Source: an uncultured Actinomycetes bacterium (lineage in GTDB: Bacteria > Actinomycetota > Actinomycetes > Mycobacteriales > SCTD01). From it: a DNA stretch of 64,000 nt. A program made the translations under genes and the position numbers. The notes below the pieces were generated by a model, which did not search any database, had not been told where the DNA came from, and worked only from the letters and a program-made list of their open reading frames with translations. The number at the start of each line of letters is the position of its first letter. Within the stretch, counting starts at the first letter, position 1. Below, piece by piece: positions 17,799 to 61,049 of the stretch. Location: assembly GCA_963784675.1 (NCBI GenBank), contig CAWASE010000019.1:1408-65407 (forward strand), given 5' to 3'.

Positions 17799-17800
17799 CC

Positions 17801-24982: not shown

Positions 24983-25839
24983 TCAGCCGCAGCCGCTGAT
25001 GCCGCAGAGCAGGTCGAAGACGGTGCTCTGGAACAGCGGCGGCCGGTCGCCCCGGCCGTCACCGTCGAGCAGCTGGAGCTCGTCGGTGTCCGCCCCGTAG
25101 GCGCGTTCGACGACCGCCACGCCGTCGCCGCCCGGCAGGTGGTCCACCGGCGCGAACGACGCCTGCGGGCTCTGGCGGTACAGCACCTGACCGGTGCCCG
25201 GCACCGGCACGACGACCAGCTCGTCGGCGGTGCCTCCCGGGATGCCGGTCAGCAGTATGGCGACGATCTTCTCGTCGGCCGCGATGGCGGGCTGCAGCAC
25301 CGGCTCGGGGTCGCGACCGGGGGTCTGGACGTAGCCGAAGGAGTACGCGGGGCCGGCACCGATCCACGCCTGCAGGACGATGTAGCGCTGCCCCGCGTCG
25401 TTGCCGCCGGTGAACAGCACCGTGTGCCCGACCGTGCCCGCGCCGCTCTGCGGTCCCAGCGCCTGCACAAAAGCGTCCACCGCGGCAGCTTCCAGGACAG
25501 GGTCGGACGTGCCGCGCGTCGGCCAGTCCAGCGCGTTCGCCGGGGCGTCGACGGCGACCGGTCCCGACGACGGGGTGCTGGACGGGATGCGGACGGGGTG
25601 CTGGACGGGGTGCTGGCCACCTGCTGCGGCAGCGCGCGGTCGTCGCCACCGGTCACCAGCGGGACGGCCAACCCCACGGCGGCGACGGCGACGACCACCG
25701 CCGCGGTCGACAGCACGGTGCGGTTGCGGCGCATCCGCCGGGCGCGGGTCTGGATGCCGCGCATCGGGTCGGGCGAGGGGGCCAGTGCTGCGGCCCGCCC
25801 GGAAAGGGCGGCCCGAAGCTCGTCGTCGAGGGGGCTCAT
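24983..25839 (-). pseudogene. membrane protein co-transcribed with the sigma factor (putative anti-sigma), interrupted by one frameshift near 25590
   Basis: ATG 25839 overlaps the sigma stop (ATGA). N-terminal part MSPLDDELRAAL...TVLSTAAVVVAVAAVGLAVPLV (TM)...QQVASTPSSTPSAS. The high-GC3 continuation SSTPSSGPVAVDAPANALDWPTRG...CGISGCG lies in another frame. The break falls in gcatcccgtcc, where tcc-ccg (C4) would restore the frame. Confidence 0.65.
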
Positions 25840-26384
25840 GCGTGCACTCCGGGGATCGAGGTACGGGGGTCGTCGGACAGTCCGGTCGCCAGCGCCGCGC
25901 TGACGCGCAGCTTGGCCAGGGCCTTGGAGGCCGTCGACTTGACCGTCCCGACGGTGATGTCCAGGGCGGCGGCGGTGTCGGCCTCGGAGAGGTCTTCGTA
26001 GTAGCGCAGGACCACGACGGCGCGCTGGCGCCGTGGCAGGGTGGCGAGGGCCTGGACCAGGGCGGCGTGCAGGTCGAGGCGCTGGGCGGTGTCGCCGGCC
26101 TCGTCCGGCCCGGCGCGTTCCGGCAGCGTGTCGGTGAGGTACTCGTCGACCTTGCGCCGCCGCCACCAGGAGGTGCGGGTGTTCAGCATGGCCCGGCGGA
26201 CGTACCCGTCCAGGGCCTGGCGGTCGCGGATACGGTCCCAGTGCAGGTAGGTCTTGGCCAGGGCTGTCTGCAGCAGGTCCTCGGCGTCGGCGCGGTTGCC
26301 CGACAGCAGATAGGCCGTCCGCAGCAGCGCTGGTGAGCGGGCGGCGACATAGGTGCGGAAGTCCTCCCGCGCCTTCTCGTCCAC
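25836..26384 (-). CDS. ECF/SigE-family RNA polymerase sigma factor
   Basis: GTG 26384 with AGGAGA 5 nt upstream. Region 2 (AEDLLQTALAKTYLHWDRI) and region 4 HTH (LSEADTAAALDITVGTVKSTASKALAKLR). 182 aa. Confidence 0.88.
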   Translation of the reverse strand: MDEKAREDFRTYVAARSPALLRTAYLLSGNRADAEDLLQTALAKTYLHWDRIRDRQALDGYVRRAMLNTRTSWWRRRKVDEYLTDTLPERAGPDEAGDTAQRLDLHAALVQALATLPRRQRAVVVLRYYEDLSEADTAAALDITVGTVKSTASKALAKLRVSAALATGLSDDPRTSIPGVHA

Positions 26385-26454
26385 GCTGTTCTCCTGTCGT
26401 CGGGGGGGTCGGACGTTCAGCAGGACGCCGTCCGGGTCTGAGGGGTTGCCTCCC

Positions 26455-31895: not shown

Positions 31896-32660
31896 TCATC
31901 CGAGCGTGCGCGTGACGGCGCCTTCGCGGACGTCGACCAGCTCGTCCGCCGGGCCGACCCCGGTGCTCTGCACCCGGTACCTGCCGGTATCCAGCCCGTC
32001 GACCCGCCAGGTGCCGTCGGCGCGGACGCGGCTGGCGAAGACCGGTCCCTCCGGGCGCGACTGCGGTCCGGCGTCGACCAGTCGGACCAGGCGCACGTCC
32101 TGACCCGCCAGGTCGACGGCGACCCGTCCCTCCACCACGCCGCCGGGCGGCAGCACCACGGACACGACGGTGCCGCAGGCTGTCGCGGTAGGGAGCCTTC
32201 GCCAGGCGACATCTGCCGCGCCCGGGCTGCGCTCCAGGATCGGGTCGTCGCGGCGGGACGGCACGTAGGAGGCCAGCAGCAGCTCGTTCCGGCAGGGCGC
32301 GGAGAAGCGGCCGTCGACGTCGGTGCGGTCCAGCAGCTCGCCCAGCTCTCGCGGCAGGACGCGGATGCCGGCCAGCGGCCGGCCGGAGCGGTCCAGCACG
32401 ACACCGACGATGCGGCCCGCGACCGGAGCCGGTGCCGGCGCCGCCGGTGCCGCCGGTGCGACCAGGCGGTCCGACGGTGTGCCGCCGGCGAGCAGCAGCG
32501 GCACTGCGGTGCCGACTCCCGCCACGGCCACCACCGCAGCCGCGACGGCTACCCCGGCGCGACGGCGTCGCCGCAGGCCGTCACGGCGTGCGCGGGCGAG
32601 CCCGTCGACGGGCACGGGCAGGGTCGCGAACCGGCGTGGTCGCGACCTTCCGGGGGTCAT
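31896..32660 (-). CDS. single-pass membrane protein downstream of the ECF sigma (putative anti-sigma, carboxypeptidase-regulatory-like ectodomain)
   Basis: ATG 32660 overlaps the sigma stop (ATGA). Arg-rich cytoplasmic N-terminus, [27 protein letters not shown]-repeat linker, then beta-rich repeats (GRIVGVVLDRSGRPLAGIRV, GGVVEGRV, DGTWRVDGLDTGRYRV). 254 aa. Confidence 0.6.
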   Translation of the reverse strand: MTPGRSRPRRFATLPVPVDGLARARRDGLRRRRRAGVAVAAAVVAVAGVGTAVPLLLAGGTPSDRLVAPAAPAAPAPAPVAGRIVGVVLDRSGRPLAGIRVLPRELGELLDRTDVDGRFSAPCRNELLLASYVPSRRDDPILERSPGAADVAWRRLPTATACGTVVSVVLPPGGVVEGRVAVDLAGQDVRLVRLVDAGPQSRPEGPVFASRVRADGTWRVDGLDTGRYRVQSTGVGPADELVDVREGAVTRTLG

Positions 32661-33181
32661 GGCGCCAGCCCTTCGGCCAGCAGCGCACGCGCCTCCGACA
32701 GCCGCCGCTTGACGGTGCCGGCGGGACGTCGCAGGGCGACGGCGACCTCGGCCACCGGCAGGTCGGCGTAGTAGTGCAGCAGCACCACGTCACGCAGTCG
32801 GGGCGGCAGCCGCTCGACCGCGTCCAGCACCGTCACGTCCGGTGGCCCCGCGTCGGCGCCGACCAGGTCCGGGAAAGCCGCGACCTCCGTCCGTCGTCGT
32901 CGCCAGCGGTCGCGGGCCAGGTTCGAGACGATCCGGTAGGCGTACGGGCGGGGCTCTCGCAGCAGCCCCCACCGCACATAGACGCGCACCAGCGCCTCCT
33001 GCGCGAGATCCTCGGCGACGGTCCGCTCGCCGACCAGCGAGAGCGCGTACCCGGCCAGGTCGCCGTAGGTGTCGAGGTAGAAGGCGTCGTAGCTGTCCGA
33101 CACCCTGAGTCCGATCCCTTCGGCGGAGGAGCTGCGCCCAGCGTCGCAGAGGGTCGGCCGGCGTGCCGCGACGACGGTCAT
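32657..33181 (-). CDS. ECF-type RNA polymerase sigma factor
   Basis: ATG 33181 (an alternative GTG lies at 33103). Region 2 AEDLAQEALVRVYVRWGLLREP and region 4 LPPRLRDVVLLHYYADLPVAEVAVALRRPAGTVKRRLSEAR. 174 aa. The rest of the 979-aa listed ORF is antisense to the next gene. Confidence 0.85.
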   Translation of the reverse strand: MTVVAARRPTLCDAGRSSSAEGIGLRVSDSYDAFYLDTYGDLAGYALSLVGERTVAEDLAQEALVRVYVRWGLLREPRPYAYRIVSNLARDRWRRRRTEVAAFPDLVGADAGPPDVTVLDAVERLPPRLRDVVLLHYYADLPVAEVAVALRRPAGTVKRRLSEARALLAEGLAP

Positions 33182-43624: not shown

Positions 43625-44278
43625 GTGCGCCTGGTGATCGCGACCTGCTCGGTCGACTACGTCGGTCGGCTGACCGCGCACCTGCCCAGCGCGACCCGGC
43701 TGCTGCTGGTGAAGGCCGACGGCTCGGTGAGCATCCACGCCGACGACCGCGCCTACAAGCCGCTGATGTGGATGAGCCCGCCGTGCAGCACGCTCGTGCG
43801 TGACGGCATCTGGACGGTGACGAACAAGGCCGGCGAACAGCTCGTCATCACCGTCGAGCAGGTGCTGTCCGACGTCAGCCACGAGCTCGGCAGCGACCCG
43901 GGGCTGGTCAAGGACGGCGTGGAGAAGCAGCTGCAGGCGCTGCTGGCCGACCAGTGCCACGTGCTGGGGGAAGGCTTCACCCTGGTGCAGCGCGAGTACT
44001 TCACCGACATCGGCCCCGTCGACCTGCTGTGCCGCGACGGCGCGGGTGCGCACGTGCTCGTGGAGATCAAGCGGCACGCCGAGATCGACAGCGTCGAGCA
44101 GCTCACCCGCTACCTGCAGCGGGTGTCGACGGTGCTCGGCGACGTCCAGGGGGTGCTGGCGGCGCAGAGCTTCAAGCCGCAGGCCAAGGTGCTGGCCGCC
44201 GACCGCGGGATCACCTGCGTCCAGGTCGACTACGACGCCCTCCGCGGCCTCGAGTCGAGCACCCCGACGCTGTTCTGA
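43625..44278 (+). CDS. nucS: endonuclease NucS (EndoMS, non-canonical mismatch repair)
   Basis: 217 aa. [21 protein letters not shown] ... [28 protein letters not shown] (PD-(D/E)xK core). Confidence 0.92.
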
Positions 44279-49648: not shown

Positions 49649-50986
49649 TCAGACGTCGCGGAAGCGGTTGATCGCCTGCAGGTGCGTGGCCCTGAACTCC
49701 TGGGCGGAGTCCTCGACGCCGAGGCCCTGCTCGGGGGCCAGGCACAGCACGCCGACCTTGCCCTGGTGCAGGTTCTTGTGCACGTCGTAGGCGGCCTGCC
49801 CGGTCTCGGCCAGCAGATAGGTCTTGGACAGCGTGGGGTGGATCAGTCCCTTGGCGATGAGGCGGTTGGCCTCCCAGCTCTCGCGGTAGTTCGCGAAGTG
49901 CGAGCCGACGATGCGCTTGAGGTTCATCCAGAAGTAGCGGTTGTCGTAGGTGTGCATGTAGCCGCTGGTGGAGGCGCAGGTGGTGATCGTGCCGCCCTTC
50001 TTGGTCACGTAGACCGAGGCGCCGAAGGTCTCGCGGCCGGGGTGCTCGAAGACGATGTCGATGTCCTCGCCGCCGGTCAGCTCGCGGATCTTCTTGCCGA
50101 ACCGCTGCCACTCCTTGGGGTCCTGGTTGTGCTCGTCCTTCCAGAACGTGTAGCCCTCGGCGCTGCGGTCGATGACGAGCTCGGCGCCCATGCGGCGCAC
50201 GATCTCGGCCTTCTCGGGGCTGCTGACCACGCAGACCGGGATGGCGCCGCCGTTGAGGGCGTACTGCGTGGCGTAGGAGCCCAGGCCGCCGCTGGCGCCC
50301 CACACGAGCACCGTGTCGCCCTGCTTCATGGCGGCGCCGTTCTTGCTGACGAGCTGCCGGTAGGCGGTGGAGTTGACCAGCCCGGGCGCGGCCGCCTCCT
50401 CCCACGTCAGGTGCGGCGCCTTGGGCATCAGCTGGTTGGCCTTGACCAGGGCCAGCTCGGCCAGGCCGCCGAAGTTGGTCTCGAAGCCCCAGATGCGCTG
50501 CTGCGGGTCCATCATCGTGTCGTCGTGGCCCTGGTGGTCCTCCAGCTCGACGCTCAGGCAGTGCGCGACGACCTTGTCGCCGGCCTTCCACTTGCTGACG
50601 CCGGGGCCGACGGCCAGCACGACGCCGGACAGGTCCGAGCCGACCACGTGGTAGGGCAGGTCGTGCCGCTTGGTGAGCTCGTTCAGGCGCCCGTAGCGCT
50701 CCAGGAAGGTGAACGTCGAGACCGGCTCGAAGATCGACGTCCACACGGTGTTGAAGTTCACCGACGACGCCATGACGGCGACGACCGCCTCGCCCGGGCC
50801 GAGCTCGGGGGTGGCGACCTCGTCCAGGTGCAGGCTCTGCCGGGGGTCCTTGTCGCGGCTGTCCAGGCCGGCGAACATCTCCTGCTCGTCCTTGCGGACG
50901 ACGATGCCGCGATAGCTCTCGGGCAGCGCGAGCCCGGCGACCGCGCCGGTGTCGCCGCTCTGGATGGCCTCGAGGATCTGCTTCAC
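49649..50986 (-). CDS. ccr: crotonyl-CoA carboxylase/reductase
   Basis: 445 aa. LPESYRGIVVRKDEQEMF ... SVNFNTVWTSIFEPVSTF ... RIWGFETNFGGLAELALVKANQLMPKP-type block and GASGGLGSYATQ Rossmann. GGGAG 8 nt upstream of GTG 50986. Confidence 0.88.
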   Translation of the reverse strand: MKQILEAIQSGDTGAVAGLALPESYRGIVVRKDEQEMFAGLDSRDKDPRQSLHLDEVATPELGPGEAVVAVMASSVNFNTVWTSIFEPVSTFTFLERYGRLNELTKRHDLPYHVVGSDLSGVVLAVGPGVSKWKAGDKVVAHCLSVELEDHQGHDDTMMDPQQRIWGFETNFGGLAELALVKANQLMPKAPHLTWEEAAAPGLVNSTAYRQLVSKNGAAMKQGDTVLVWGASGGLGSYATQYALNGGAIPVCVVSSPEKAEIVRRMGAELVIDRSAEGYTFWKDEHNQDPKEWQRFGKKIRELTGGEDIDIVFEHPGRETFGASVYVTKKGGTITTCASTSGYMHTYDNRYFWMNLKRIVGSHFANYRESWEANRLIAKGLIHPTLSKTYLLAETGQAAYDVHKNLHQGKVGVLCLAPEQGLGVEDSAQEFRATHLQAINRFRDV

Positions 50987-51177
50987 GCCTGCTGCTCCCG
51001 GGTGGTTGCGATGGTGGGGGTTGTTGCGGTGGTGACGGCGGAGATTACCGGCCGGTAGCCCTGGGCCGACGGGCGGCTGTCCACAACCTCGCTGGGAGCC
51101 GTTCCGTCCTGGTCCTGCGAGAGCGACGGTGGGAGCCTGACCCCGTGCCTCCTGCCGACCCCGATCAAGGAGCCCGC

Positions 51178-51735
51178 ATGCTCGCCACCCGCCCGCTGCA
51201 GTGGACCGCCGACGACATCCCGTTGCTCGACGACTGGCCCGAGGGCTACCGCTACGAGGCCAGCGAAGGCGTGCTGGAGGTGACCCCGCCGCCGGACGTG
51301 GAGCACGACGACCTGCCGGAGCAGCTCCAGCTCCAGCTCGCGCCGCAGCTACCTCCCGGCTGGCGGGTGAGCCTGGGTCGGGCGGTGCGGTCGGGCACCG
51401 GCTGGCGCATCCCGGACCTGCTGGTCCGCGCCGTGCCGAGCAGCACCGACCGGCGCGACCGCGTGTTCCCCGCTTCCGAGGTGGCGCTGGTCGTGGAGGT
51501 GGAGAGCCCCACCGGGCTGCACCGCGACCGGGTCGTCAAGCACCGCGAGTACGCCGAGATGGGCATCCCAGCCTACTGGCGCATCGAGCGCTCACCAGAG
51601 CTGGCGATCGTCGCCTACGGCCTCGCGGACGGCAGCTACCGGCAGGTGGTGCGCCTCACCGACGGCGCCGCCACCCTGCCCGGACCGGTCCCGCTGTCGG
51701 TCGACGTGCGGCGGCTGGGGCGCCCGGGCCTCTAA
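51178..51735 (+). CDS. Uma2-family (DUF820) PD-(D/E)xK endonuclease-like protein
   Basis: AAGGAG 6 nt upstream of ATG 51178. RIPDLLV ... ALVVEVESP ... KHREYAEMGIPAYWRIE core. 185 aa. Confidence 0.75.
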   Translation: MLATRPLQWTADDIPLLDDWPEGYRYEASEGVLEVTPPPDVEHDDLPEQLQLQLAPQLPPGWRVSLGRAVRSGTGWRIPDLLVRAVPSSTDRRDRVFPASEVALVVEVESPTGLHRDRVVKHREYAEMGIPAYWRIERSPELAIVAYGLADGSYRQVVRLTDGAATLPGPVPLSVDVRRLGRPGL

Positions 51736-53189
51736 CGCTTGGCGCGCAGGCCGGCCAGCTGTCCGGTGAAGATCGAGGTGGCGTTGCTGCCGTCGCCCCG
51801 CAGGCGGTTCATCGCCGCATGCTGGTCGTCGGTCATGGCGCCGCCGGCCTGGCACACGTTGCGCATCAGCTCTGACAGCGGGTCCTTGACGGTGGCTTTG
51901 GCCAGCCACGACGCGTCGATCGCCGCGGTGGTGGGCACCTTCTTCTTCTCGTCGAACTTCAGGATGTCGATGCCGGAGTGGTAGTCGATGGCCCAGACGT
52001 AGTCGGTGCCGGGGATCCAGTAGGCCTGCGAGGTGGAGCCGCGCACCGGCTGGTAGAAGCCGACCTGGCGGATCTTGCCGGTGCTTCGGGTCGACCTTCA
52101 GGAAGCGCGTGCCGTGCTCGTACCAGGCGGCGGCGACCAGGACCGAGCCGTCTTGGCCTTCTTCTCGGTGAACCAGTGGCCCGAGCAGCCCAGGCGCGTT
52201 CACGGCCGGGTCGCCGTCGGTGTAGGTGCCGCTGACCGGACGCAGGACGTCGAGCTGCTTCATCGGGACGCCCTTGTCGAAGCCGGCCATCGACCAGGTG
52301 CTGAACGCGCCGGCCCCGGTCTCGCAGGTGCCGGTGAAGTTCGTCTCGCCCTTGCCCAGCAGCAGCTCGCCGTCGCGCAGCGGCAGGCCCGCGCTCTCGC
52401 CGCCGGCCTTGCGGGGCTTGTACCGGTCGGCTCGGGGCGGATGTTGTTGTGCTGGTAGGCGGTGTTCTTGGTGATCTCGCCGGTGGTGAGCACCTTGAGC
52501 TTGAGCGGGTTGCCCTTGACCTGCTCGAAGACCACCAGCGGCGTCGGTGTCGGCGATCCAGACGCCGGCGTCGTCCTGGTGCAGGGCGTGGCCGCTGCTC
52601 GGCGCCGGTCAGCGCGCGCCAGGACTGCTCCTTCGGCAGCTCCACCGGGTTGCTGCGGTCGCGGATGTCGTAGGTGTTGCCCTCCGAGCCGAACAGGTAG
52701 TTGCACGGCCTGGTCGGCGCAGACCACGGTGTGGTCGCCGCCGAGCGGGATCGTGCCCTTGAGCACGCGGCAGCGTCGGGTCGCTGGTGTCGACGACGTG
52801 CAGGTAGAGCGTGCCCTCGAACTCGGTGAGGATCGCGGTCTTGCCGTCGGCGGAGACGGCGATGTCCTCGTTCTCCCAGTTGTAGATCGGGCAGGTGGCC
52901 GAGCAGCAGCGGCTGGCCGGGTCGGTGGCGTCGTAGATCGACAGCCCGGCCGCGCCGCTGACGTAGGCCCGGCGCTGCTTGCCGACCTTGACGATCTTCA
53001 TCGACACCGACGGCGCCGTCCAGCGGGACGGTGCCCGACGTGCGTCACGTTGTCGGAGATGAAGTCCGCGCCGGTGGCCGGCACGACCGGGCTGACGGGG
53101 ACGGTCGGCAGCACGCCTGCGGTCGCGATCCCCACGGACGCGAGCAGGACGGCGGCGCTGGCGAGCGCGAGGGCGGGACGACGGCGCAT
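51732..53189 (-). pseudogene. secreted beta-propeller protein with LVIVD-like repeats, broken by at least 7 frame switches
   Basis: ATG 53189. Signal peptide MRRRPALALASAAVLLASVGIATAG. Conserved-looking segments (KIVKVGKQRRAYVSGAAGLSIYDATDPA; LKGTIPLGGDHTVVCADQA; CNYLFGSEGNTYDIRDRSNPVELPKEQSW; PLVVFEQVKGNPLKLKVLTTGEITKNTAYQHNNIRP; ADRYKPRKAGGESAGLPLRDGELLLGKGETNFTGTCETGAGAFSTWSMAGFDKGVPMKQLDV; KIRQVGFYQPVRGSTSQAYWIPGTDYVWAIDYHSGIDILKFDEKK) alternate among all three frames. Breaks lie near 53035, 52765, 52705, 52595, 52545, 52435 and 52083. Family call is tentative. Confidence 0.55.
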
Positions 53190-53275
53190 GCGGGACGGCT
53201 CCAAGGAGGTCGAGGTTGTGCCCTTGTTCGACGCCGCGCCGCGCGGTTCCTGCCGCGCCTGGGAAGATCTGCGGC

Positions 53276-53746
53276 ATGCCGAAACGGAGCGCCGGACTGC
53301 TGCTCTACCGGCAGGTGCCGCACCTGGAGGTGCTGCTGGCCCATCCCGGTGGCCCGTTGCACGCCCGCAAGGACGTCTGGGGCGTGCCCAAGGGCGAGTA
53401 CGGCGACGACGAGCCCCCTCGCGACGCCGCCTACCGCGAGTGGTCCGAGGAGATCGGCCACCTGCCGCCGGCCGGCGAACCGCTCGACCTCGGTGAGATC
53501 GTCCAGAAGGGCGGCAAGCGGGTGCGGGCGTGGGCCTTGGCCGGTGACCTGGACGTCGCCACGGTCGTGAGCAACACCTTCGCGATGCGGTGGCAGGGCC
53601 GGCTCCAGGAGTTCCCGGAGATCGACCGCGCGCAGTGGTTCGACCTCGCCACGGCGCGCGGCAAGATCCTCCCGGCGCAGGAGCCGTTCCTGGACCGGCT
53701 CGGGGAGGTGCTGGCGATCCGGGACAGGGGCGGCCCTGGTGGCTGA
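53276..53746 (+). CDS. Nudix hydrolase
   Basis: ATG 53276. Intact Nudix box G-X5-E-X7-REUXEEXG read as GEYGDDEPPRDAAYREWSEEIG. 156 aa. Confidence 0.85.
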   Translation: MPKRSAGLLLYRQVPHLEVLLAHPGGPLHARKDVWGVPKGEYGDDEPPRDAAYREWSEEIGHLPPAGEPLDLGEIVQKGGKRVRAWALAGDLDVATVVSNTFAMRWQGRLQEFPEIDRAQWFDLATARGKILPAQEPFLDRLGEVLAIRDRGGPGG

Positions 53747-53779
53747 CACCGAGACCGGAGGGTCACCCGGCGGACCGCC

Positions 53780-54213
53780 TCAGTGACCCATGCCGTCGGG
53801 GCCGGGCTCGACCAGCTCGACCAGCACGCCCCCGCTGCTCTTGGGATGGATGAAGTTGACCCGGCTGCCGGCCGTGCCCGTTCTTCGGCTCGTCGTAGAG
53901 CAGCCGCATGCCCTGGCCGCGCAGGTGCGGCGCTGACCTCGTCGAGGTCGTCGACGCGGTAGGCCATCTGCTGGATGCCCGGGCCGTTCTTGTCCAGGAA
54001 CTTGCCGATGGTGCGTGTCCGGGCGACAGCGGCGACAGCAGCTGCACGAACGAGCCGGAGTCGCCGACCTCCATCATCGCCTCGCGAACGCCCTGCTCCT
54101 CGTTGACCTCCGCGTGCACGCAGCGCATGCCGTAAGCCGGTCTCGTAGATCGCGATGGCGGCGTCGAGGTCGGCGACGGCGATGCCGACGTGGTCGATGC
54201 GGGTGATCTTCAC
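53780..54213 (-). pseudogene. methylmalonyl-CoA epimerase (VOC/glyoxalase fold), broken by at least 4 frame switches
   Basis: GTG 54213 (GGAG 9 nt upstream). Segments VKITRIDHVGIAVADLDAAIAIYETG / MRCVHAEVNEEQGVREAMMEVGDSGSFVQLLSPLSP / TIGKFLDKNGPGIQQMAYRVDDLDEVSA / HLRGQGMRLLYDEPKNG / AGSRVNFIHPKSSGGVLVELVEPGPDGMGH lie in different frames. Breaks near 54133, 54017, 53929 and 53878. The length of 434 nt is not a multiple of 3. Confidence 0.75.
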
Positions 54214-54299
54214 GGGTGGGCTCCGTCGGGCGCCGACGGGGTGAGCGGGACGGTGCTCGTATCGTCGCAGGCACGCACCCATCGACCCTGGAGGACCCC

Positions 54300-55521
54300 G
54301 TGAGCAGCTCCGAGAACCCGTCCGTCATCGTCGCCGGCGCCCGCACGCCCATCGGCAAGCTCGCCGGGCGCCTTCAAGGACCTCACCGCCATGGACCTCG
54401 GCGGGGTCGCCATCAAGGGCGCGCTCGAGCGCTCCGGGATCACCGGCGACCAGGTCGACTACGTGATCATGGGCCACGTGCTGCAGGCCGGCCAGGGCCA
54501 GATCACGGCCCGTCAGGCCGCGGTCAAGGGCGGCATCGGCATGGACGTCCCGGCGCTGACCATCAACAAGGTCTGCCTGTCCGGCCTGGACGCGATCGCG
54601 CTGGCCGACCAGCTGATCCGCGCCGGTGAGGTCGAGGTCGTCGTCGCCGGTGGCATGGAGTCGATGACCAACGCGCCGTACCTGCTGCCCAAGGCCGCGC
54701 CAGGGCTACCGCTACGGCAACGCCGAGATCCTCGACGCGACCTTCCACGACGGCCTGTTCGACGCCTTCGACCGGGTGCCGATGGGCGAGGGCACCGAGC
54801 GCCACGACGGCCGAACTTCCCGGCCATCACCCGCGAGGAGCAGGACGAGTTCGCCGCCCGCAGCCACGAGCTCGCCGCCGCCGCGATCAAGGACGGCCGC
54901 TTCGCCGACGAGATCGTCCCGGTCGCGATCCCGCAGCGCAAGGGCGACCCGGTCGTCGTCACCGAGGACGAGGGCGTGCGCCCCGGCACCACCGCCGAGT
55001 CGCTCGGCAAGCTCGCGCCCGGCGTTCACCAAGGACGGCACGATCAGCGCCGGCAACGCCTCGCAGATCTCCGACGGCGCCGCCGCGGTCGTCGTCATGA
55101 GCAGGGCCAAGGCCGAGGCGCTCGGGCTGACCTGGCTCGCCGAGATCGGCGCGCACGGCATCGTCGCCGGCCCCGACAACTCCCTGCAGGAGCAGCCGGC
55201 CAACGCCATCAAGAAGGCGCTCGCGCAAGGACGGGCCTGACCGTCGACGACGTCGACCTGTTCGAGCTCAACGAGGCGTTCGCCGCCGTCGGGATCGCGT
55301 CCACCGCGCGCGCTCGGCGTCGACCCGGACAAGGTCAACGTCAACGGCGGCGCGATCGCGCTCGGCCACCCGATCGGCGCCTCCGGTGCCCGCGTCGTGC
55401 TGCACCTGGCGCACGAGCTCAAGCGCCGCGGCGGCGGCCTGGGTGCGGCCGCGCTGTGCGGCGGCGGCGGACAGGGCGACGCCCTGCTGCTGCGCGTGCC
55501 CGGCCGAGCCCGCACAGCTGA
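54300..55521 (+). pseudogene. acetyl-CoA acetyltransferase (thiolase), broken by at least 6 frame switches
   Basis: GGAGGA 5 nt upstream of GTG 54300. Segments VIVAGARTPIGKLAG / KDLTAMDLGGVAIKGAL...INKVCLSGLDAIALA...[16 protein letters not shown] / [18 protein letters not shown] / [36 protein letters not shown] / [27 protein letters not shown] / [18 protein letters not shown] / [28 protein letters not shown]...[12 protein letters not shown] alternate between frames. Breaks near 54367, 54699, 54810, 55021, 55231 and 55309. The 3' end is uncertain: the last frame has no stop before meaB. Confidence 0.8.
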
Positions 55522-55554
55522 CCGCCGCGCGGCACCGCCGGGCGCGGCCGGCGG

Positions 55555-56533
55555 GTGCTCGACGTCCCGACGCTGGTCGAGCAGGCCTGCGGCGGCGACC
55601 GCACCCACCGGCCGCGCCGTCGCCCGGCTGATCAGCCTGGTCGAGGACGCCAGCCCGGCGCTGCGCGAGGTCATGGCGCTGCTGGCGCCGCGGGCAGGTC
55701 ACGCGCGCGTGGTCGGCCTGACCGGTTCGCCCGGCGTCGGCAAGAGCACCTCCACCAACGCGCTGGTCGCGGCCTACCGTCGACGCGGCCTGCGGGTCGG
55801 CGTGCTCGCGGTCGACCCGAGCTCGCCGTTCTCCGGCGGCGCGCTGCTCGGCGACCGCGTCCGGATGCAGGACCACGCCCTGGACGAGGGCGTGTTCATC
55901 CGCTCGATGGCCTCCCGCGGGCACCTCGGCGGGCTATCCTGGGCGACCCCGCAGGCGCTGCGGGTGCTGTCCGCAGCCGGCTGCGACGTCGTGCTCGTCG
56001 AGACCGTGGGTGTAGGTCAGGCGGAAGTCGAGATCGCCTCGCTCGCGGACACCACGCTGGTGCTGCTGGCACCCGGCATGGGCGACGGGATCCAGGCGGC
56101 CAAGGCCGGGATCCTGGAGGTCGCCGACGTCTTCGTGGTCAACAAGGCCGACCGCGACGGCGCCGACACCGTCGTGCGCGACCTGCGCTACATGCTCAGC
56201 CTGGGAGGCACCCGCAAGGGAGCAGACAGCACGGACGACGGTTGGCGGGTGCCGATCCTCAAGACGATCGCGGCGAAGGGCGAGGGCGCCGACGACGTGG
56301 TCGACGCCATCGAGCGGCACGGCGCCTGGCTGGCCGAGACCGGCCGCCTCGCCCAGCGCCGCACCGACCGGGCCGCCGACGAGGTCGAGGCGATCGCGCT
56401 GACGACGCTGCGCGAGCGCCTCGGCGACCTGCGCACGGGCACGTCGCTGCGCGACCTGGCAGCCCGCGTGGCCGCGGGCGAGCTCGACCCCTACGCGGCC
56501 GCCGACGACCTGGTGGCCGCCGTCACCGGGTGA
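55555..56533 (+). CDS. meaB: MeaB/ArgK-type G-protein chaperone of B12 mutases (one frameshift near 55605 in the N-terminal helices)
   Basis: GTG 55555 gives [17 protein letters not shown]. The conserved continuation [17 protein letters not shown]...[12 protein letters not shown] (Walker A)...VVNKADRDG (NKxD) is in the next frame, with the junction at the accc-acc run 55603-55609. If the break is real, the first in-frame ATG is 55673. Confidence 0.8.
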
Positions 56534-56565
56534 GCGCCCCCGTGCCGGCAGCCACCATGCGACTC

Positions 56566-56683
56566 GCGGCTGCCGCCGCGGTCACTTCTTGGCGGCTGCC
56601 GCCGCAGTCACTTCCCTCGCGGCTGCCGCCGCGGTCACTTCCCTCGCGGCTGCCGCCGCGGTCACTTCTTTGCGGCTGCCGCC
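56566..56683. repeat. 4.5 copies of a 26/27-bp tandem repeat between convergent meaB and a small ORF
   Basis: Units gcggctgccgccgcggtcacttc(ttg|cctc|tttg) at 56566-56591 (26 nt), 56592-56618 (27), 56619-56645 (27) and 56646-56671 (26), plus a partial unit 56672-56683. Each unit contains the mini-hairpin gcggc-tgcc-gccgc. cggcagcc at 56546-56553 can pair with ggctgccg of any unit. Confidence 0.95.
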
Positions 56684-56781
56684 GAGACGGCCGTGCCCTG
56701 CGTCGGCGTCTGACCGCTGACCTTCTTGTTCTTGTCCGCCTTGGGCTTCTTGGCGGCGCGGCCGCCCTTGTCCTTGCTCAT
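56662..56781 (-). CDS. 39-aa lysine-rich small protein, unknown function
   Basis: ATG 56781 with GAGGAG 6 nt upstream. MSKDKGGRAAKKPKADKNKKVSGQTPTQGTAVSAAAAKK. The last codons and the stop lie inside the tandem repeat. Coding status is unproven. Confidence 0.45.
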   Translation of the reverse strand: MSKDKGGRAAKKPKADKNKKVSGQTPTQGTAVSAAAAKK

Positions 56782-56957
56782 GGCGTGCTCCTCGGGCTCG
56801 CGGAGCGACCGGCGGCGCCGGTTGTGCCCCGTCCGCACTCTCGCACGCCCCTTGGTCATCCGGCGAGCCCCCGCCGCCGACGGCAGCGCCCGCAGGCCGC
56901 AGCCCGGCGACGGTGCGAGACTTCAGCCATGGTCAAGAAGACGGGACGCGAGCCGTC

Positions 56958-57392
56958 GTGCTGAGCCGGCCCGCGCCGGACCCCGCGGCGCTGGACCTGC
57001 AGCGCCACCCTGAGGGCGGCTGGTTCCGCGAGACCTGGCGCGCCCCCGGCGTGGTCGAGACGCCGCACGGGCCGCGCTCACCTGCGACGTCGATCCACTA
57101 CCTGCTCGAGGCAGGACAGTCCTCGCGCTGGCACCGGGTCCGGTCCGGCGAGCTGTGGCTCTGGCAGGGCGGCGGCTCGCTGCTGCTGTACCTCGGCGGT
57201 ACCGAGCAGACCCCCGTGCCCGACCGCACGGTCGTGGTCGGACCCGACGGCGTCCTGCAGCATCTCGTCGAGCCGGGGCAGTGGCAGGCCGCGCAGCCGA
57301 TGGACACCGCGGTCCTGCTCGCCTGCGTGGTGGCGCCCGGCTTCGAGTTCGAGGACTTCGAGCTCGTCGACCAGCGTCCGGACGTCCCGTGA
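56958..57392 (+). CDS. cupin-fold protein (DUF985-like)
   Basis: LQRHPEGGWFRETWR ... TSIHYLL ... SRWHRVRSGELWLWQGG ... VAPGFEFEDFEL pattern. Start is GTG 56958 or GTG 56913. Confidence 0.65.
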   Translation: MLSRPAPDPAALDLQRHPEGGWFRETWRAPGVVETPHGPRSPATSIHYLLEAGQSSRWHRVRSGELWLWQGGGSLLLYLGGTEQTPVPDRTVVVGPDGVLQHLVEPGQWQAAQPMDTAVLLACVVAPGFEFEDFELVDQRPDVP

Positions 57393-57673
57393 TGACGGCC
57401 CTGCGCCGGGTGGCGCTCGCGGAGTCGATCTCGTTCGTCGTGCTGCTGCTGCTGGGCTCGGTCCTGAGCCGCGTGTCGAGCGTCAACCTGCTGCCGGTGC
57501 TCGGACCGTTGCACGGGGTGCTGTTCCTCGCGCTGGTCGGCCTGGTGCTGCTGCGTCGGACGGCGATGGGTTGGTCCTGGTGGTTCACCGCGGTCATGCT
57601 CACCATCGGCTCGCCGGGCGCCCACTTCGCCGTCCACGCCACGCCGGACGTCCTTCCCGCCCAGGCGGTCTGA
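57389..57673 (+). CDS. small membrane protein (DUF3817-like)
   Basis: GTG 57389/ATG 57392 overlaps the cupin stop. About 3 TM helices (AESISFVVLLLLGSVL, LGPLHGVLFLALVGLVLL, WWFTAVMLTIGSPG). 94 aa. Confidence 0.6.
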   Translation: MMTALRRVALAESISFVVLLLLGSVLSRVSSVNLLPVLGPLHGVLFLALVGLVLLRRTAMGWSWWFTAVMLTIGSPGAHFAVHATPDVLPAQAV

Positions 57674-57764
57674 CCCGGCGTCCAGGCTCAGCCGGGCCGC
57701 GGCCCGTCGGCAGTCAGCGCAGCAGGCGGCCCCTACGGGAGGCCTCTGGGATGTCGGGGGCAAG

Positions 57765-57781
57765 CGGTCGGGACCCGACCG
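57765..57781. promoter_or_regulatory. perfect 17-bp palindrome cggtcggg-a-cccgaccg upstream of the cox-like operon
   Basis: Read directly. Lies in the 324-nt gap between the DUF3817-like gene and coxS. Confidence 0.45.
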
Positions 57782-57819
57782 GTACGGGGCCCGCTGTTGC
57801 GTCTTGCGCCACCCGGGTT

Positions 57820-57868
57820 AGGGTCACGCTGTGACGCAGGTCATAGACGTGCGTCACGTGTAGACCCT
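57820..57868. promoter_or_regulatory. 49-bp imperfect inverted repeat (19-nt arms, 11-nt spacer) in a locally lower-GC stretch upstream of coxS
   Basis: agggtcacgctgtgacgca-ggtcatagacg-tgcgtcacgtgtagaccct. The outer 6 bp and inner 8 bp pair perfectly. It also contains the sub-palindrome gtcac-gct-gtgac. Confidence 0.45.
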
Positions 57869-57997
57869 GTTCCGTCCGCTCGTCGAGGCAGGCGTCAGGA
57901 GGGGCCCGGACCCGTCCCGCAAACTGGTCCGGGCGCTTCTCCGTCACCTCGATGACTGCGTGCGGGAACGTCCGCTGGAGCTCCGGAGAGGCGTCAG

Positions 57998-58530
57998 ATG
58001 CGCGTCAGCTTGAAGGTCGACGGTGTCACCTACACCGATGAGGTCGAACCCCGAACCCTGCTCACCCACCACCTGCGCGACGGCCTCGGCCGGGTCGGCA
58101 CCCCGATCGGTTGCGACACCCGCAACTGCGGCAGCTGCACGATCCGGCTCGACGGCGACAGCGTGAAGTCCTGCTCGGTGCTGGCGGTGCAGGCCGACGG
58201 CACGCGAGATCACCACCATCCAGGGCCTGGCCGACGGTGAGGGCGACGGCCCGCCGGCTGGCACCCGGTGCAGCGCGCCTTCCAGGAGCACCACGGCCTG
58301 CAGTGCGGCTACTGCACCCCGGGATGATCATGGCGACCGTGGACCTGCTCTCGCGCAACGCCAGCCCCACCGAGGACGAGGTGCGCCACGGGCTGGAGGG
58401 CAACCTCTGCCGCTGCACCGGTTATCAGAACATCGTCAAGGCCGTCCTCTCCGCCGCCTCCGAGCTGCGCGGAGACGGCCCGATCGCCGGTTCCTTCCAG
58501 GACGCCGACGCCGAGAAGGTGGACGCATGA
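57998..58530 (+). pseudogene. [2Fe-2S] small subunit of a CoxSLM/xanthine-dehydrogenase-family molybdoenzyme, 3 frame switches
   Basis: GGAGAGG upstream of ATG 57998. [17 protein letters not shown] (cluster I), then [13 protein letters not shown], then [21 protein letters not shown] and MIMATVDLL...[13 protein letters not shown] (cluster II) lie in shifted frames. Breaks near 58205 and 58250, and at GGG 58321-58323 where ccg-ggg-atg would be needed. Confidence 0.8.
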
Positions 58531-61049
58531 CCGAGCAGCTGGATGCCGGCCTGGTCGCCGGCGAGATCGCCGAGCACCCGGACGCGCTGAGCAAGCCCTA
58601 CGCGGGCGGTGAGCTGGGGCGCGGACGCCGTCGCAAGGAGGACGCCAAGCTCGTCACCGGCCAGACCAACTGGACCGACAACATCACCCTGCCGGGCCTG
58701 CTGCACCTGACCGTGCTGCGCAGCCCGATGGCCCACGCGAAGGTCGTCTCGGTCGACGTGAGCGCAGCCCTGGAGATGCCCGGCGTCATCGCCGCCTACA
58801 GCGGCAAGGACCTCGCCGACGTCATGGGCGGCTCGATGCCGTGCGCGTGGCCGGTCACCCCCGACATGGTCAGCCCGGCGCACACCCCGCTGGCCATCGA
58901 CGAGGTGCGCTACGTCGGCGACGGTGTCGCCGTCGTCATCGCCCGCAGCCGCTACGAGGCCGCCGATGCGCTGGAGGCCGTCGCGGTCGAGTACGAGCAG
59001 CTGCCGGCCGTCGTCGACATGGAGGCGGCGCTCAAAGACGGCTCTCCGCTGGTGCACAGCGACAAGGGCACCAACAAGTGCTTCCTGTTCGACTTCCCCG
59101 GCGCCGGAGCCGACTACGACGAGACCGTCGCGGCTGCCGGCGACGACGCGGTGGTGGTGAAGCGCCGCTTCCGGCAGCAGCGGCTATCCCGACCCCGATG
59201 GAGCCCCGCGGTGTCGTCGTCGCACCCATCGCGGCTGCCGACGAGTTCACCGTCTACTCCGCCACGCAGATCCCGCACATCCTGCGGGTGATGCTCGCGC
59301 TCACCACCGGCATCGGCGAGCACAAGCTGCGCGTCATCGCGCCCGACGTCGGCGGCGGCTTCGGCGCCAAGCTCAACGTCTACGCCGAGGAGGTGCTCTG
59401 CCTGGTCGTCGCCCGCAAGCTCGGCCGACCCGATCAAGTGGACCGAGACGCGCAGCGAGAACTACCAGGCCACCACGCACGGCCGCGACCAGATCCAGGA
59501 CATCACCATCGCGGCCCGCAAGGACGGCACGCTGCTGGGCCTGAAGGTCGAGCTGATGGCCGACATGGGCGCCTACCTGCAGCTCATCACCCCCGGCGTG
59601 CCGGTGCTGGGTGCGTTCATGTTCCCGGCGATCTACAAGATGGACGCCTACCGCTTCCTGTGCACCGGCGTCTTCACGACCAAGACGCCCACCGACGCCT
59701 ATCGCGGCGCCGGCCGACCCGAGGCGACCTACGCCATCGAGCGGATCATGGACGAGCTCGCGGCCGAGCTCGGACGCGACCCGATGGAGCTGCGCAAGCA
59801 GAACTGGATCAGGCACGAGGAGTTCCCGTACACGATGATCGCGGGGCTCACCTACGACAGGGGCAACTACGAGGCGGCCACCGAGAAGGCCGAGCAGATG
59901 TTCGACCTCGCCGGGCTGCGGGCCGAGCAGCAGCAGCGCCGTGAGCGCAAGGACCCGATCCAGCTCGGCATCGGCATCTCGACGTTCACCGAGATGTGCG
60001 GGCTGGCACCCTCGCGGGTGCTCGGCTCGCTGTCCTACGGCGCCGGCGGCTGGGAGTCGGCGTCGGTGCGGATGCTGCCGACCGGCAAGGTCGAGGTCGT
60101 GTCCGGCGCCACGCCGCACGGGCAGGGCCACCACACCGCCTGGAGCCAGATCGTCGCCGACTCGCTCGGGGTGCCGTTCGAGGACGTCCTGCTGGTCGCC
60201 GGTGACACTCAGAGCAGCCCCAAGGGCATGGACACCTACGGCTCGCGGTCGCTGGTCGTCGGCGGCGTCGCGATCCACAAGGCCACCGGCAAGGTCATCG
60301 AGAAGGCCAAGCGGATCGCCGCGCACCTGCTGGAGGCCAGCGAGGACGACGTCGAGTTCGGTGGCGGGACGTTCAGCGTGAAGGGCTCGCCGGAGGCCTC
60401 GCTGACCATCCAGGAGGTGGCGCTGGCGACCTTCGCGGCGCACAACCTGCCCGACGGCATGGAGCCGAGCCTGGACAGCGACTACGTCTACGACCCGGAG
60501 AACTTCTCCTACCCGCACGGCACCCACCTGTGCGCGGTCGAGATCGACACCGAGACCGGCTTCACGAAGATCCGCAAGTACGTCTGCGTCGACGACATCG
60601 GCAAGATCGTCAATCCGGTCATCGTCGAGGGCCAGGTGCACGGCGGGCTCGCGCAGGGCATCGCGCAGGCGCTGTACGAGGAGGCCGTCTACGACGCCGA
60701 GGGCAACCTGACCACCGGCTCGCTGGTCGACTACCTCGTGCCGGCCGCGCCCGACCTGCCGCACTTCGACACCGGCCGCACCGAGACGCCCGCGACCAGC
60801 AACCCGTTGGGCGTCAAGGGTGTCGGCGAGGCCGGCACGATCGCCTCGACCCCGGCGGTCATGAACGCCGTCGTCGACGCGCTGCGCCCCTACGGCGTGA
60901 ACAACCTGGACATGCCCGCGACGCCGGAGCGGGTCTGGCGGGCCATCCACGACGACGGCACGCTGCGCGCGACCTCGGGCACCGTCGCCTACGGGGGCGC
61001 GTCCACCGCGACCACCGCCGGCACCACGAGCAACGGAGCGTCCGCATGA
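58527..61049 (+). pseudogene. molybdopterin-binding large subunit, form-II CoxL-like, 2 frame switches in the first 910 nt
   Basis: ATG 58527 overlaps the coxS stop. Breaks near 59186 (cggct-atcc where ctg-atc is expected) and at CCC 59429-59431. The middle segment IPTPMEPRGVVVAP...VIAPDVGGGFGAKL and the last 1.6 kb are in other frames. Active-site loop PTDAYRGAGRPEA (the AYRGAGR form-II signature, not AYXCSFR). Confidence 0.8.

Follow-up and report, generated by a model that had tools for sequence, protein, structure and literature searches.

Six genes of the window, the whole 64-kb stretch of DNA that was analysed, were interrupted by at least 28 frame breaks between positions 52083 and 59429, and these breaks very probably represent a local sequencing, consensus or assembly artefact and not the loss of the genes. 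The breaks were clustered in two tracts and consisted only of insertions and deletions (indels), and the broken genes remained under normal constraint, with relaxed selection absent.

Frame breaks in the six genes

Frame hopping was detected in the window using a GC3 frame plot and a codon-phase HMM, both of which showed recurrent frame switches at ~52.0-59.45 kb. The breaks were placed by frameshift-permitting protein-to-DNA alignment, using our own dynamic-programming aligner, against intact orthologues from the syntenic loci L001, L004-L007, L011 and L012 of Frankiales-like MAGs with ~80% nucleotide identity. The genes of these relatives were filtered by GC3 before alignment, and this procedure replaced a plain tblastn with all stop-to-stop ORFs, which was too noisy because off-frame ORFs align too at such GC content. 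With intact orthologues aligned and each break placed, the listed ORFs could only be read by frame hopping, as the sequence-only reading had claimed. Its count of about 25 breaks proved too low, since 28 were found by the orthologue alignment and ~31 events with a lower frameshift penalty, at which three apparent 2-nt insertions were each resolved into a pair of +1 insertions. At several sites the position of the inserted base was ambiguous by 1-6 nt. Overall, 28 of 29 breaks fell in 7.35 kb of the 64 kb (binomial p ~1e-25). The frameshift-aware alignments revealed no in-frame stop within the corrected frames of the broken genes, which bore out the earlier observation that the correct-frame segments lack stop codons.

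The most heavily interrupted gene (51732..53191, minus strand) encoded a conserved secreted or lipoprotein-like protein and contained 12 breaks (9 insertions and 3 deletions), located at about 52083, 52160, 52194, 52436, 52542, 52600, 52712, 52764, 52891, 52917, 53011, and 53036. The reconstructed protein had no Pfam match, which left its former label "LVIVD-like" unsupported by Pfam, and intact homologues were present in metagenome contigs, the best with 69% identity. For the reconstructed proteins of the other broken genes, the Pfam domain matches ran end to end. The methylmalonyl-CoA epimerase of the glyoxalase fold (53783..54215), whose strand was corrected to minus, carried five single-base insertions at about 53880, 53929, 54015, 54020, and 54139 (four breaks at coarser resolution, at about 53882, 53931, 54020, and 54138), and its reconstruction matched positions 1-109 of 109 of Glyoxalase_4. 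The acetyl-CoA acetyltransferase (thiolase; 54300..55504, plus strand) carried ~8 single-base insertions at ~54363-54368, 54695, ~54800, ~54813, 55015, ~55226, ~55238, and 55306 (six breaks at coarser resolution, at 54366, 54697, ~54806, 55015, ~55220, and 55306). The final frame of the thiolase had no stop codon, and its closest intact homologues were 91% identical to the reconstruction.

The gene meaB (55530..56533, plus strand), which encodes the methylmalonyl-CoA mutase-associated GTPase, had one break at ~55597, with the other ~930 nt intact. A possible pair of compensating shifts at 56207/56235, further into meaB, was rejected because the sequence there is an in-frame variable loop. Together with the epimerase and the thiolase, meaB belonged to an ethylmalonyl/methylmalonyl-CoA cluster adjoining ccr. 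The remaining two genes, on the plus strand, formed a form-II CODH-like pair. The coxS-like [2Fe-2S] subunit gene (57998..58530) had three breaks at 58205, ~58240, and 58316, and the coxL-like molybdopterin subunit gene of the AYRGAGR type (58527..61049) had two in its first ~900 nt, at ~59187 and 59429, with the last 1.6 kb intact.

Two coordinate-defined tracts

The extent of the tracts followed position in the window and disregarded both strand and the limits of genes. Tract 1 (52083..55610), supported by alignments, DNA multiple alignments and the phase HMM, contained ~26 one-base events at a density of roughly 1 event per 80-155 nt and ran from the secreted-protein gene through the epimerase and thiolase genes into the initial ~50-100 nt of meaB. 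Tract 2 (58205..59429), supported by frameshift-aware and DNA multiple alignments, contained five events, namely single-base insertions at 58205 and 59429, an insertion of 14 nt at 58238-58251, and single-base deletions at ~58317 and ~59188. Neither tract was assigned to a strand, and the genes of both strands were affected alike. The edges of the tracts lay within genes: for tract 1, inside the secreted-protein gene, ~350 nt away from its 3' end, and ~50-100 nt into meaB; for tract 2, at ~200 nt into coxS and ~900 nt into coxL. The breaks had been described as confined to six genes, a description that was replaced by two coordinate-defined tracts with edges inside genes. The 2.6 kb without breaks between the tracts was unlikely at uniform density (p ~0.001 for such a gap). 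The local GC of the tracts was 70-73%, the same as that of their surroundings, and extreme local GC was therefore rejected as a cause.

The clean 2.6-kb stretch contained the intact genes of a cupin (DUF985; ~56950-57392, plus strand) and a DUF3817 membrane protein (57392-57673, plus strand). The Nudix hydrolase gene (53216..53746, plus strand) was also intact, with a Pfam NUDIX match at positions 2-133 of 134 and a constant GC3 phase; by synteny, it was not present at the matching position in the relatives. Uninterrupted reading of the interleaved genes was confirmed for Nudix, cupin, DUF3817 and coxM by Pfam matches running end to end, and for the main part of meaB and the C-terminal region of coxL by shift-free alignment to orthologues. 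The control genes ccr, hydroxyacyl-CoA dehydrogenase, and NucS were intact in the frameshift-aware alignment. The Nudix gene lay in the one clean gap of tract 1 (53037-53879), whose 843 nt were not significantly long at the local event density (p ~0.09). Its sparing fitted chance but was also to be expected from selection on a live gene. The sparing itself stood, but the argument built on it, that sequencing error would not spare interleaved genes, was weaker than it looked, since the breaks were not organised by gene and the Nudix gap was of this length.

The phase HMM and checks of its candidates also upheld the claim that the other ~56 kb of the window shows only one comparable break, near 25590. 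This lone break (25560..25620, near 25590-25616, minus strand) was located in an anti-sigma-like gene, where a run of C among tandem "STPS" repeats had lost one base (-1), and it was unlike the tract events in type. Further HMM candidates at 17800, 32389-33109, 35017, and 38913 were not frameshifts and represented ordinary gene junctions or lower-GC3 genes (atpE/atpF, an ECF sigma and anti-sigma pair, MoxR, and adjacent same-frame genes).

Event spectrum, constraint and origin of the breaks

Insertions accounted for ~26 of the 31 events (~84%) and deletions for ~5, and nearly all insertions were a single G or C. The event size was exactly 1 nt in all cases except the 14-nt insertion. In bacterial pseudogenes, the insertion-to-deletion ratio is ~0.76 and the deletion sizes are long-tailed (PMC6054270); against this reference ratio, the excess of insertions had a binomial p of 4e-6. 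All 17 of the single-base insertions placed by MAFFT were G or C (p ~0.004). About half of the insertions did not duplicate the neighbouring base, such as gggCagg at 52892, cccGttc at 53880, gcGtg at 54015, ctcGcgc at 55015, and acgCgag at 58205, and strand slippage therefore failed as an explanation. No shared recognition motif was found at the insertion sites in the DNA alignments. Read on the plus strand, the inserted bases were 15 G vs 6 C; read on the coding strand, they were C 10 vs G 3 in the minus-strand genes and G 5 vs C 3 in the plus-strand genes. This trend for G on the plus strand weakly opposed a coding-strand rule of the kind expected from insertional or deletional RNA editing (p ~0.09, a rough estimate). 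The phase HMM showed that the abandoned frame stayed open for 100-1300 nt beyond most junctions, and GC3 was 0.9-1.0 inside each frame segment.

After frame correction, the thiolase had 0/214 differences and the epimerase 0/75 differences at the columns invariant in 10-11 relatives. Private amino-acid changes amounted to 7.1% in the secreted protein (7.1-16.6% in intact relatives), 5.0% in coxS (2.5-7.3%), and 8.3% in the N-terminal part of coxL, just above its relatives (3.9-7.5%), and the rate in the remaining broken genes was inside the range of the intact relatives. The identity of the window to its relatives was equal to or higher than that among the relatives. If the indels had been accompanied by substitutions at 1:1, 4.7 changes at invariant codons would be expected, with a probability of 0.009 of finding none; at 3:1, this probability falls to 7e-7.

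None of the 13 syntenic relatives shared the shifts, and their orthologues read through in one frame. Conspecific sequence was searched for in genome contigs, a protein database and metagenome contigs and was not found. A meaB scan of the genome contigs gave relatives with at most 85% amino-acid and ~80% nucleotide identity, and the reconstructed thiolase had a best true match of 91% in a database of 5.8 billion proteins, where the top-scoring match, P0001, was an unrelated, internally duplicated thiolase and was discarded. Neither ccr nor NucS had an exact match on record in the protein database, and the lineage-specific meaB loop peptide had 0 matches in metagenome contigs. Since no conspecific assembly was found for comparison, the artefact is one that we infer and did not observe.

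Of the two options left by the sequence-only reading, a consensus or assembly problem and a very recent inactivation, the evidence favoured the first. An artefact is indicated because selection was not relaxed (0/214 and 0/75) and in-frame stops were absent, because insertions dominated whereas real bacterial pseudogenes favour deletions, because slippage left about half of the insertions unexplained, because the events formed two coordinate-defined tracts with edges inside genes, and because the orthologues carried no shifts. The deposited consensus would then be wrong in ~52.08-55.61 kb and 58.2-59.43 kb, and the DNA of the organism would be unbroken. Both tracts would likely derive from low-quality, low-coverage or unpolished reads, which may leave one spurious event every 100-150 nt or so, mainly single inserted bases (mostly G or C) with the occasional one-base deletion, while the remaining window would be at normal accuracy. 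The secreted protein, epimerase, thiolase, meaB, coxS, and coxL would be intact and functional in the organism. The insertion-rich, almost substitution-free and non-homopolymer profile resembles what a GC-rich template gives in poor Sanger sequencing from single reads or in a single-molecule consensus that was left uncorrected. Counting against the artefact, an insertion-dominated profile that is not tied to homopolymers is atypical of the commonest current platforms. Mis-polishing from paralogues was considered as a source and, at the scale of the window, rejected, as no paralogues of the affected genes were present in the window and no chimeric substitutions were observed.

It is improbable that the breaks are instead a real and very recent indel-only mutational burst, in which the epimerase-thiolase-meaB and coxS-coxL modules were inactivated and substitutions have not yet accumulated. 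The events are in the deposited sequence and tightly clustered, the Nudix, cupin, and DUF3817 genes were spared, and a conceivable source of such a burst is repeated double-strand breaks mended by actinobacterial Ku/LigD end joining; mycobacterial end joining can add single non-templated nucleotides, and additions of this kind fit the non-duplicating insertions. However, the burst would need ~31 independent events in 7 kb and none in the neighbouring 56 kb, with 0 substitutions at 289 invariant codons and no common recognition motif at the insertion sites. Several genes carried 5-12 events where one suffices to inactivate, and the tract edges ignored the gene boundaries. We know of no bacterial process that acts locally and yields indels alone.

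Ordinary pseudogene decay, in which the six genes lost their function earlier and neutral mutations have been building up, was judged highly unlikely and was effectively refuted by the conservation analysis. In its favour, adjacent genes each carried multiple frameshifts, but in-frame stops and large deletions were absent, the conserved positions showed no excess change, the bias was toward insertions and not deletions, and GC3 was maintained in each frame segment. The argument from the sequence alone that decay does not fit was upheld, stops and excess amino-acid change both being absent.

There is next to no likelihood that the indels are real and decoded by programmed frameshifting, bypassing or RNA-level base removal with full-length proteins still made, or that a free-living actinobacterium with genomic indels uses a novel many-site recoding (translational base skipping or RNA-level removal of G/C): the perfectly conserved corrected frames imply proteins under selection and the inserted bases were nearly always G or C, but every shift was missing from the orthologues, the sites (5-12 per gene) had no common slippery or stimulatory motif and no stop codon, the abandoned frame was usually open, the events were limited to two tracts crossing gene boundaries, the G bias followed the plus strand whatever the gene orientation, albeit as a weak trend, and we know of no comparable decoding system in bacteria.

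Significance and comparison with known systems

The main value of the analysis lies in quality control. If the breaks are an artefact, the six genes would be misannotated as pseudogenes or fragments, and metabolic reconstructions would wrongly drop their functions. If the indels were confirmed, they would point to a localized indel-only mutational process or to dense recoding, neither of which, to our knowledge, is known in bacteria.

Long-read assemblies contain ORF-breaking clusters of residual indels, including patches that short reads could not polish, and such indels truncate predicted proteins and persist where short reads are unmappable (bioRxiv 10.1101/285049). The breaks of the window resembled these errors of unpolished assemblies in the indel-only differences, the density of about 1 per 100-150 nt, the many breaks per constrained gene, and the patches ignoring gene boundaries. 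They differed in being mostly insertions and in lying in short runs in only about half of the cases, whereas residual nanopore and HiFi errors are usually associated with homopolymers.

The presence of several frameshifts in each of several neighbouring genes was also reminiscent of the clustered pseudogenes of leaf-nodule Burkholderia symbionts and Mycobacterium leprae. Clustered pseudogenes show a deletion bias, broad indel sizes and accompanying substitutions (PMC6054270), whereas the events of the window were ~84% insertions, nearly all of 1 nt, with no excess substitution and no stop. A frame change within a conserved gene and a stop-free corrected frame were shared with programmed frameshifting and bypassing (prfB, IS elements, and dnaX). 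In those cases, each gene has a single site, its slippery or stimulatory signal is conserved, and orthologues keep the shift; none of these features applied to the window.

The last likeness was to the "compression" and base-calling errors of GC-rich actinomycete DNA, which GC3 frame plots are classically used to detect, although the window itself gives no sign of the sequencing chemistry. With these errors, the breaks had in common a template of 72-75% GC, indels of G or C, and abrupt changes of the GC3 phase.

Locus and relatives

Scanning of the MeaB protein against one-genome-per-species contigs recovered syntenic loci from uncultured Frankiales/Mycobacteriales-type MAGs, which cover 43.6-64 kb of the window (GC content of the window, 70-78%) and share ~80% DNA identity and 81-85% MeaB protein identity with it. 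The gene order was NucS, fused hydroxyacyl-CoA dehydrogenase, ccr (49649-50986, minus strand), Uma2 nuclease-like, conserved secreted protein (51732-53191, minus strand), Nudix, methylmalonyl-CoA epimerase (minus strand, between Nudix and thiolase), thiolase, meaB, a small basic ORF, DUF985 cupin, DUF3817, coxS, coxL and coxM, followed by more genes. The Uma2-family nuclease-like gene (51145-51735) and the Nudix gene (53216-53746) were both intact and were missing at the matching positions in relatives L005-L012. The NucS/EndoMS-type endonuclease gene (43625-44278), of a type that serves non-canonical mismatch repair in actinobacteria, was intact 8 kb upstream and gave no hint of a mutator background.

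The secreted protein had been labelled an LVIVD-like lipoprotein from sequence alone, a label that was not borne out, as the reconstructed protein gave no Pfam match at E <= 0.01. Its N-terminus resembled a signal peptide, and intact homologues were found in soil metagenome contigs (L082-L107) at 49-69% identity, with one short partial match at 82%. The coxL-like subunit (58527-61049) bears the motif AYRGAGR, of the form-II "CODH-like" type, rather than the form-I CO-dehydrogenase motif, and its substrate is therefore uncertain. The spacer 3' of meaB (56563-56684) contained a 27-nt tandem repeat (4.6 copies, ~90% matches), abutted by the small, very basic ORF (MSKDKGGRAAKKPKADKNKK..., minus strand, ~56665-56790), which had no Pfam match.

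A second sequence of the same species was found neither in genomes and MAGs (best relatives ~80% identical in DNA) nor, for the thiolase, among 5.8 billion proteins (best 91% identical); exact look-ups of the ccr and NucS proteins gave no match, and two metagenome scans gave nothing closer than 69%. An ENA metagenome contig (L081, 8154-9875) encoded a 573-aa thiolase (P0001) with ~170 residues duplicated internally, which inflated its homology score; the duplication could be genuine or could stem from misassembly.

Placement and distribution of the frame breaks

In the GC3 frame plot, the third-position phase jumped every 50-350 nt at ~52.0-55.6 kb and again at 58.2-59.43 kb, and was steady across whole genes elsewhere. 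Breaks were placed with a custom dynamic-programming protein-to-DNA aligner with explicit frameshift moves, using intact orthologues from up to five relatives per gene, and the break positions were concordant across references. The secreted protein contained 12 breaks, the epimerase 4, the thiolase 6, meaB 1 (~55597), coxS 3 and coxL 2. With a lower frameshift penalty and DNA alignments, three apparent "CG" dinucleotide insertions were resolved into paired +1 insertions 5-15 nt apart, e.g. ggtgcGtgtcCggg, bringing the total to ~31. The final thiolase frame lacked a stop and continued without a shift into the body of meaB (ORF 55397-56533); the meaB N-terminus (10 residues) lay in another frame, which suggests at least one further undetected indel near 55.5 kb (~55495-55520).

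No shift was found in the control genes ccr, dehydrogenase, NucS and coxM, the meaB body, or the C-terminal 1.6 kb of coxL, and Nudix, cupin, DUF3817 and coxM matched Pfam from end to end. A seven-state codon-phase HMM run over the entire window found the known breaks again, including segments down to 44-66 nt; outside the broken region, nearly all coding segments ended at their own stop codon. Inspection of every suspicious junction left one true break outside, at ~25590-25616, so that 28 of the 29 breaks fell in 7.35 of 64 kb (p ~1e-25). This single break (25560-25620, minus strand) shifts the frame within tandem "STPS" repeats of an anti-sigma-like gene, located downstream of the ECF sigma factor at 25839-26453. 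One base seems to be missing from a C-run (-1; TCCCG for the expected TCCCCG), and the event differs in kind from the G/C insertions of the tracts.

These results confirmed the frame hopping in 51.7-59.5 kb, the intactness of the interleaved genes and the near-absence of breaks elsewhere in the window, which the sequence-only reading had claimed; its count of ~25 was too low (28 aligned). The events fell into two tracts, 52083-~55610 and 58205-59429, separated by a clean 2.6 kb (p ~0.001 under uniform density). The edges cut genes: the secreted-protein gene was clean over its last ~350 nt, meaB beyond its first 50-100 nt, coxS over its first ~200 nt and coxL over its last 1.6 kb. Genes on both coding strands were affected, and a gap as long as the Nudix-bearing one of 843 nt was compatible with chance in tract 1 (p ~0.09). 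The pattern is therefore better put as two damaged coordinate intervals than as six broken genes with intact ones between.

Nature of the events and state of the coding information

In DNA multiple alignments with 3-12 relatives, the events were window-only single-column gaps amid well-conserved sequence, comprising ~26 insertions and 5 one-base deletions. The only event longer than 1 nt was a 14-nt window-specific insertion in coxS (58238-58251), flanked by GACGG direct repeats, which adds roughly four codons and a 2-nt shift. At several sites the inserted base could be placed only to within a few bases; all 17 single-base insertions placed unambiguously enough by MAFFT were G or C (p ~0.004 at 72% GC). 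Breaks had been ascribed earlier partly to short runs and partly to single inserted bases. About half of the insertions did lengthen a 2-3-base run (e.g. GGG 54366-54368 and CCC 59429-59431, both listed in the sequence-only reading), and in the other half the inserted base differed from both neighbours (gggCagg 52892, cccGttc 53880, gcGtg 54015, ctcGcgc 55015, acgCgag 58205). Spontaneous +1 frameshifts are expected mainly from slippage that duplicates the adjacent base; half of the insertions duplicate no neighbour and therefore did not come from slippage.

Each window protein was rebuilt in the corrected frame, and every relative's locus was aligned with the same aligner, tolerating errors in the relatives too. 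No corrected frame contained an in-frame stop. Private changes in leave-one-out comparison were 7.1% in the secreted protein (7.1-16.6% in intact relatives), 5.0% in coxS (2.5-7.3%) and 3.6% in the C-terminal part of coxL (2.9-4.2%); among the broken genes, only the N-terminal part of coxL (8.3%) lay just above the relatives' range (3.9-7.5%). Window-to-relative identity was at least as high as relative-to-relative identity. The coding information is thus whole apart from the indels.

Explanations for the indels

Localized consensus error is very probably the cause of the indels. It agrees with their density (~1 per 100-150 nt), with the lack of any other kind of change, with the surplus of insertions and with tracts bounded by coordinates. 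The profile resembles that of an uncorrected single-molecule consensus, or of poor single-read Sanger sequencing on a GC-rich template. The two stretches probably carry consensus errors, and the organism's own genes would be unbroken. That long-read or thinly covered assembly regions keep indels that truncate predicted proteins is well documented, and residual indels last wherever short reads fail to map for polishing (bioRxiv 10.1101/285049). The practical use is a quality flag: the six genes are probably intact, and as biology there is most likely no real feature.

The sequence-only reading had left artefact and very recent inactivation side by side, and the analysis favours the artefact. 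A real, very recent, local, indel-only inactivation is unlikely; with the coding information whole, it would have to consist of ~31 indels and nothing else. Substitutions accompanying the indels at 1:1 should have left 4.7 replacements among the invariant codons of thiolase and epimerase (P(none) = 0.009; 7e-7 at 3:1).

Ordinary pseudogene decay, already doubted in that reading for leaving more than indels, is highly improbable: the window matched all 289 columns invariant among relatives (0/214 differing in the thiolase, 0/75 in the epimerase), with private-change rates like those of intact relatives and no stops. Programmed frameshifting or RNA editing is the least probable of all, because no orthologue is shifted, no slippery motif is common to the sites, the abandoned frame usually runs on for 100-1300 nt beyond the junction before a stop and therefore allows no stop-codon-stimulated shifting, and the inserted bases show a weak trend to G on the plus strand (15 G against 6 C) whichever strand codes, which would point to a bias of the DNA or sequencing strand, not of mRNA.

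The indel spectrum also speaks against decay. Among 857 curated bacterial-pseudogene indels, high-GC Burkholderia included, insertions were rarer than deletions (ratio ~0.76) and deletion sizes were long-tailed, with slipped-strand mispairing discussed (PMC6054270). In contrast to these real pseudogenes, ~84% of the events here were insertions and nearly all were 1 nt (p = 4e-6).
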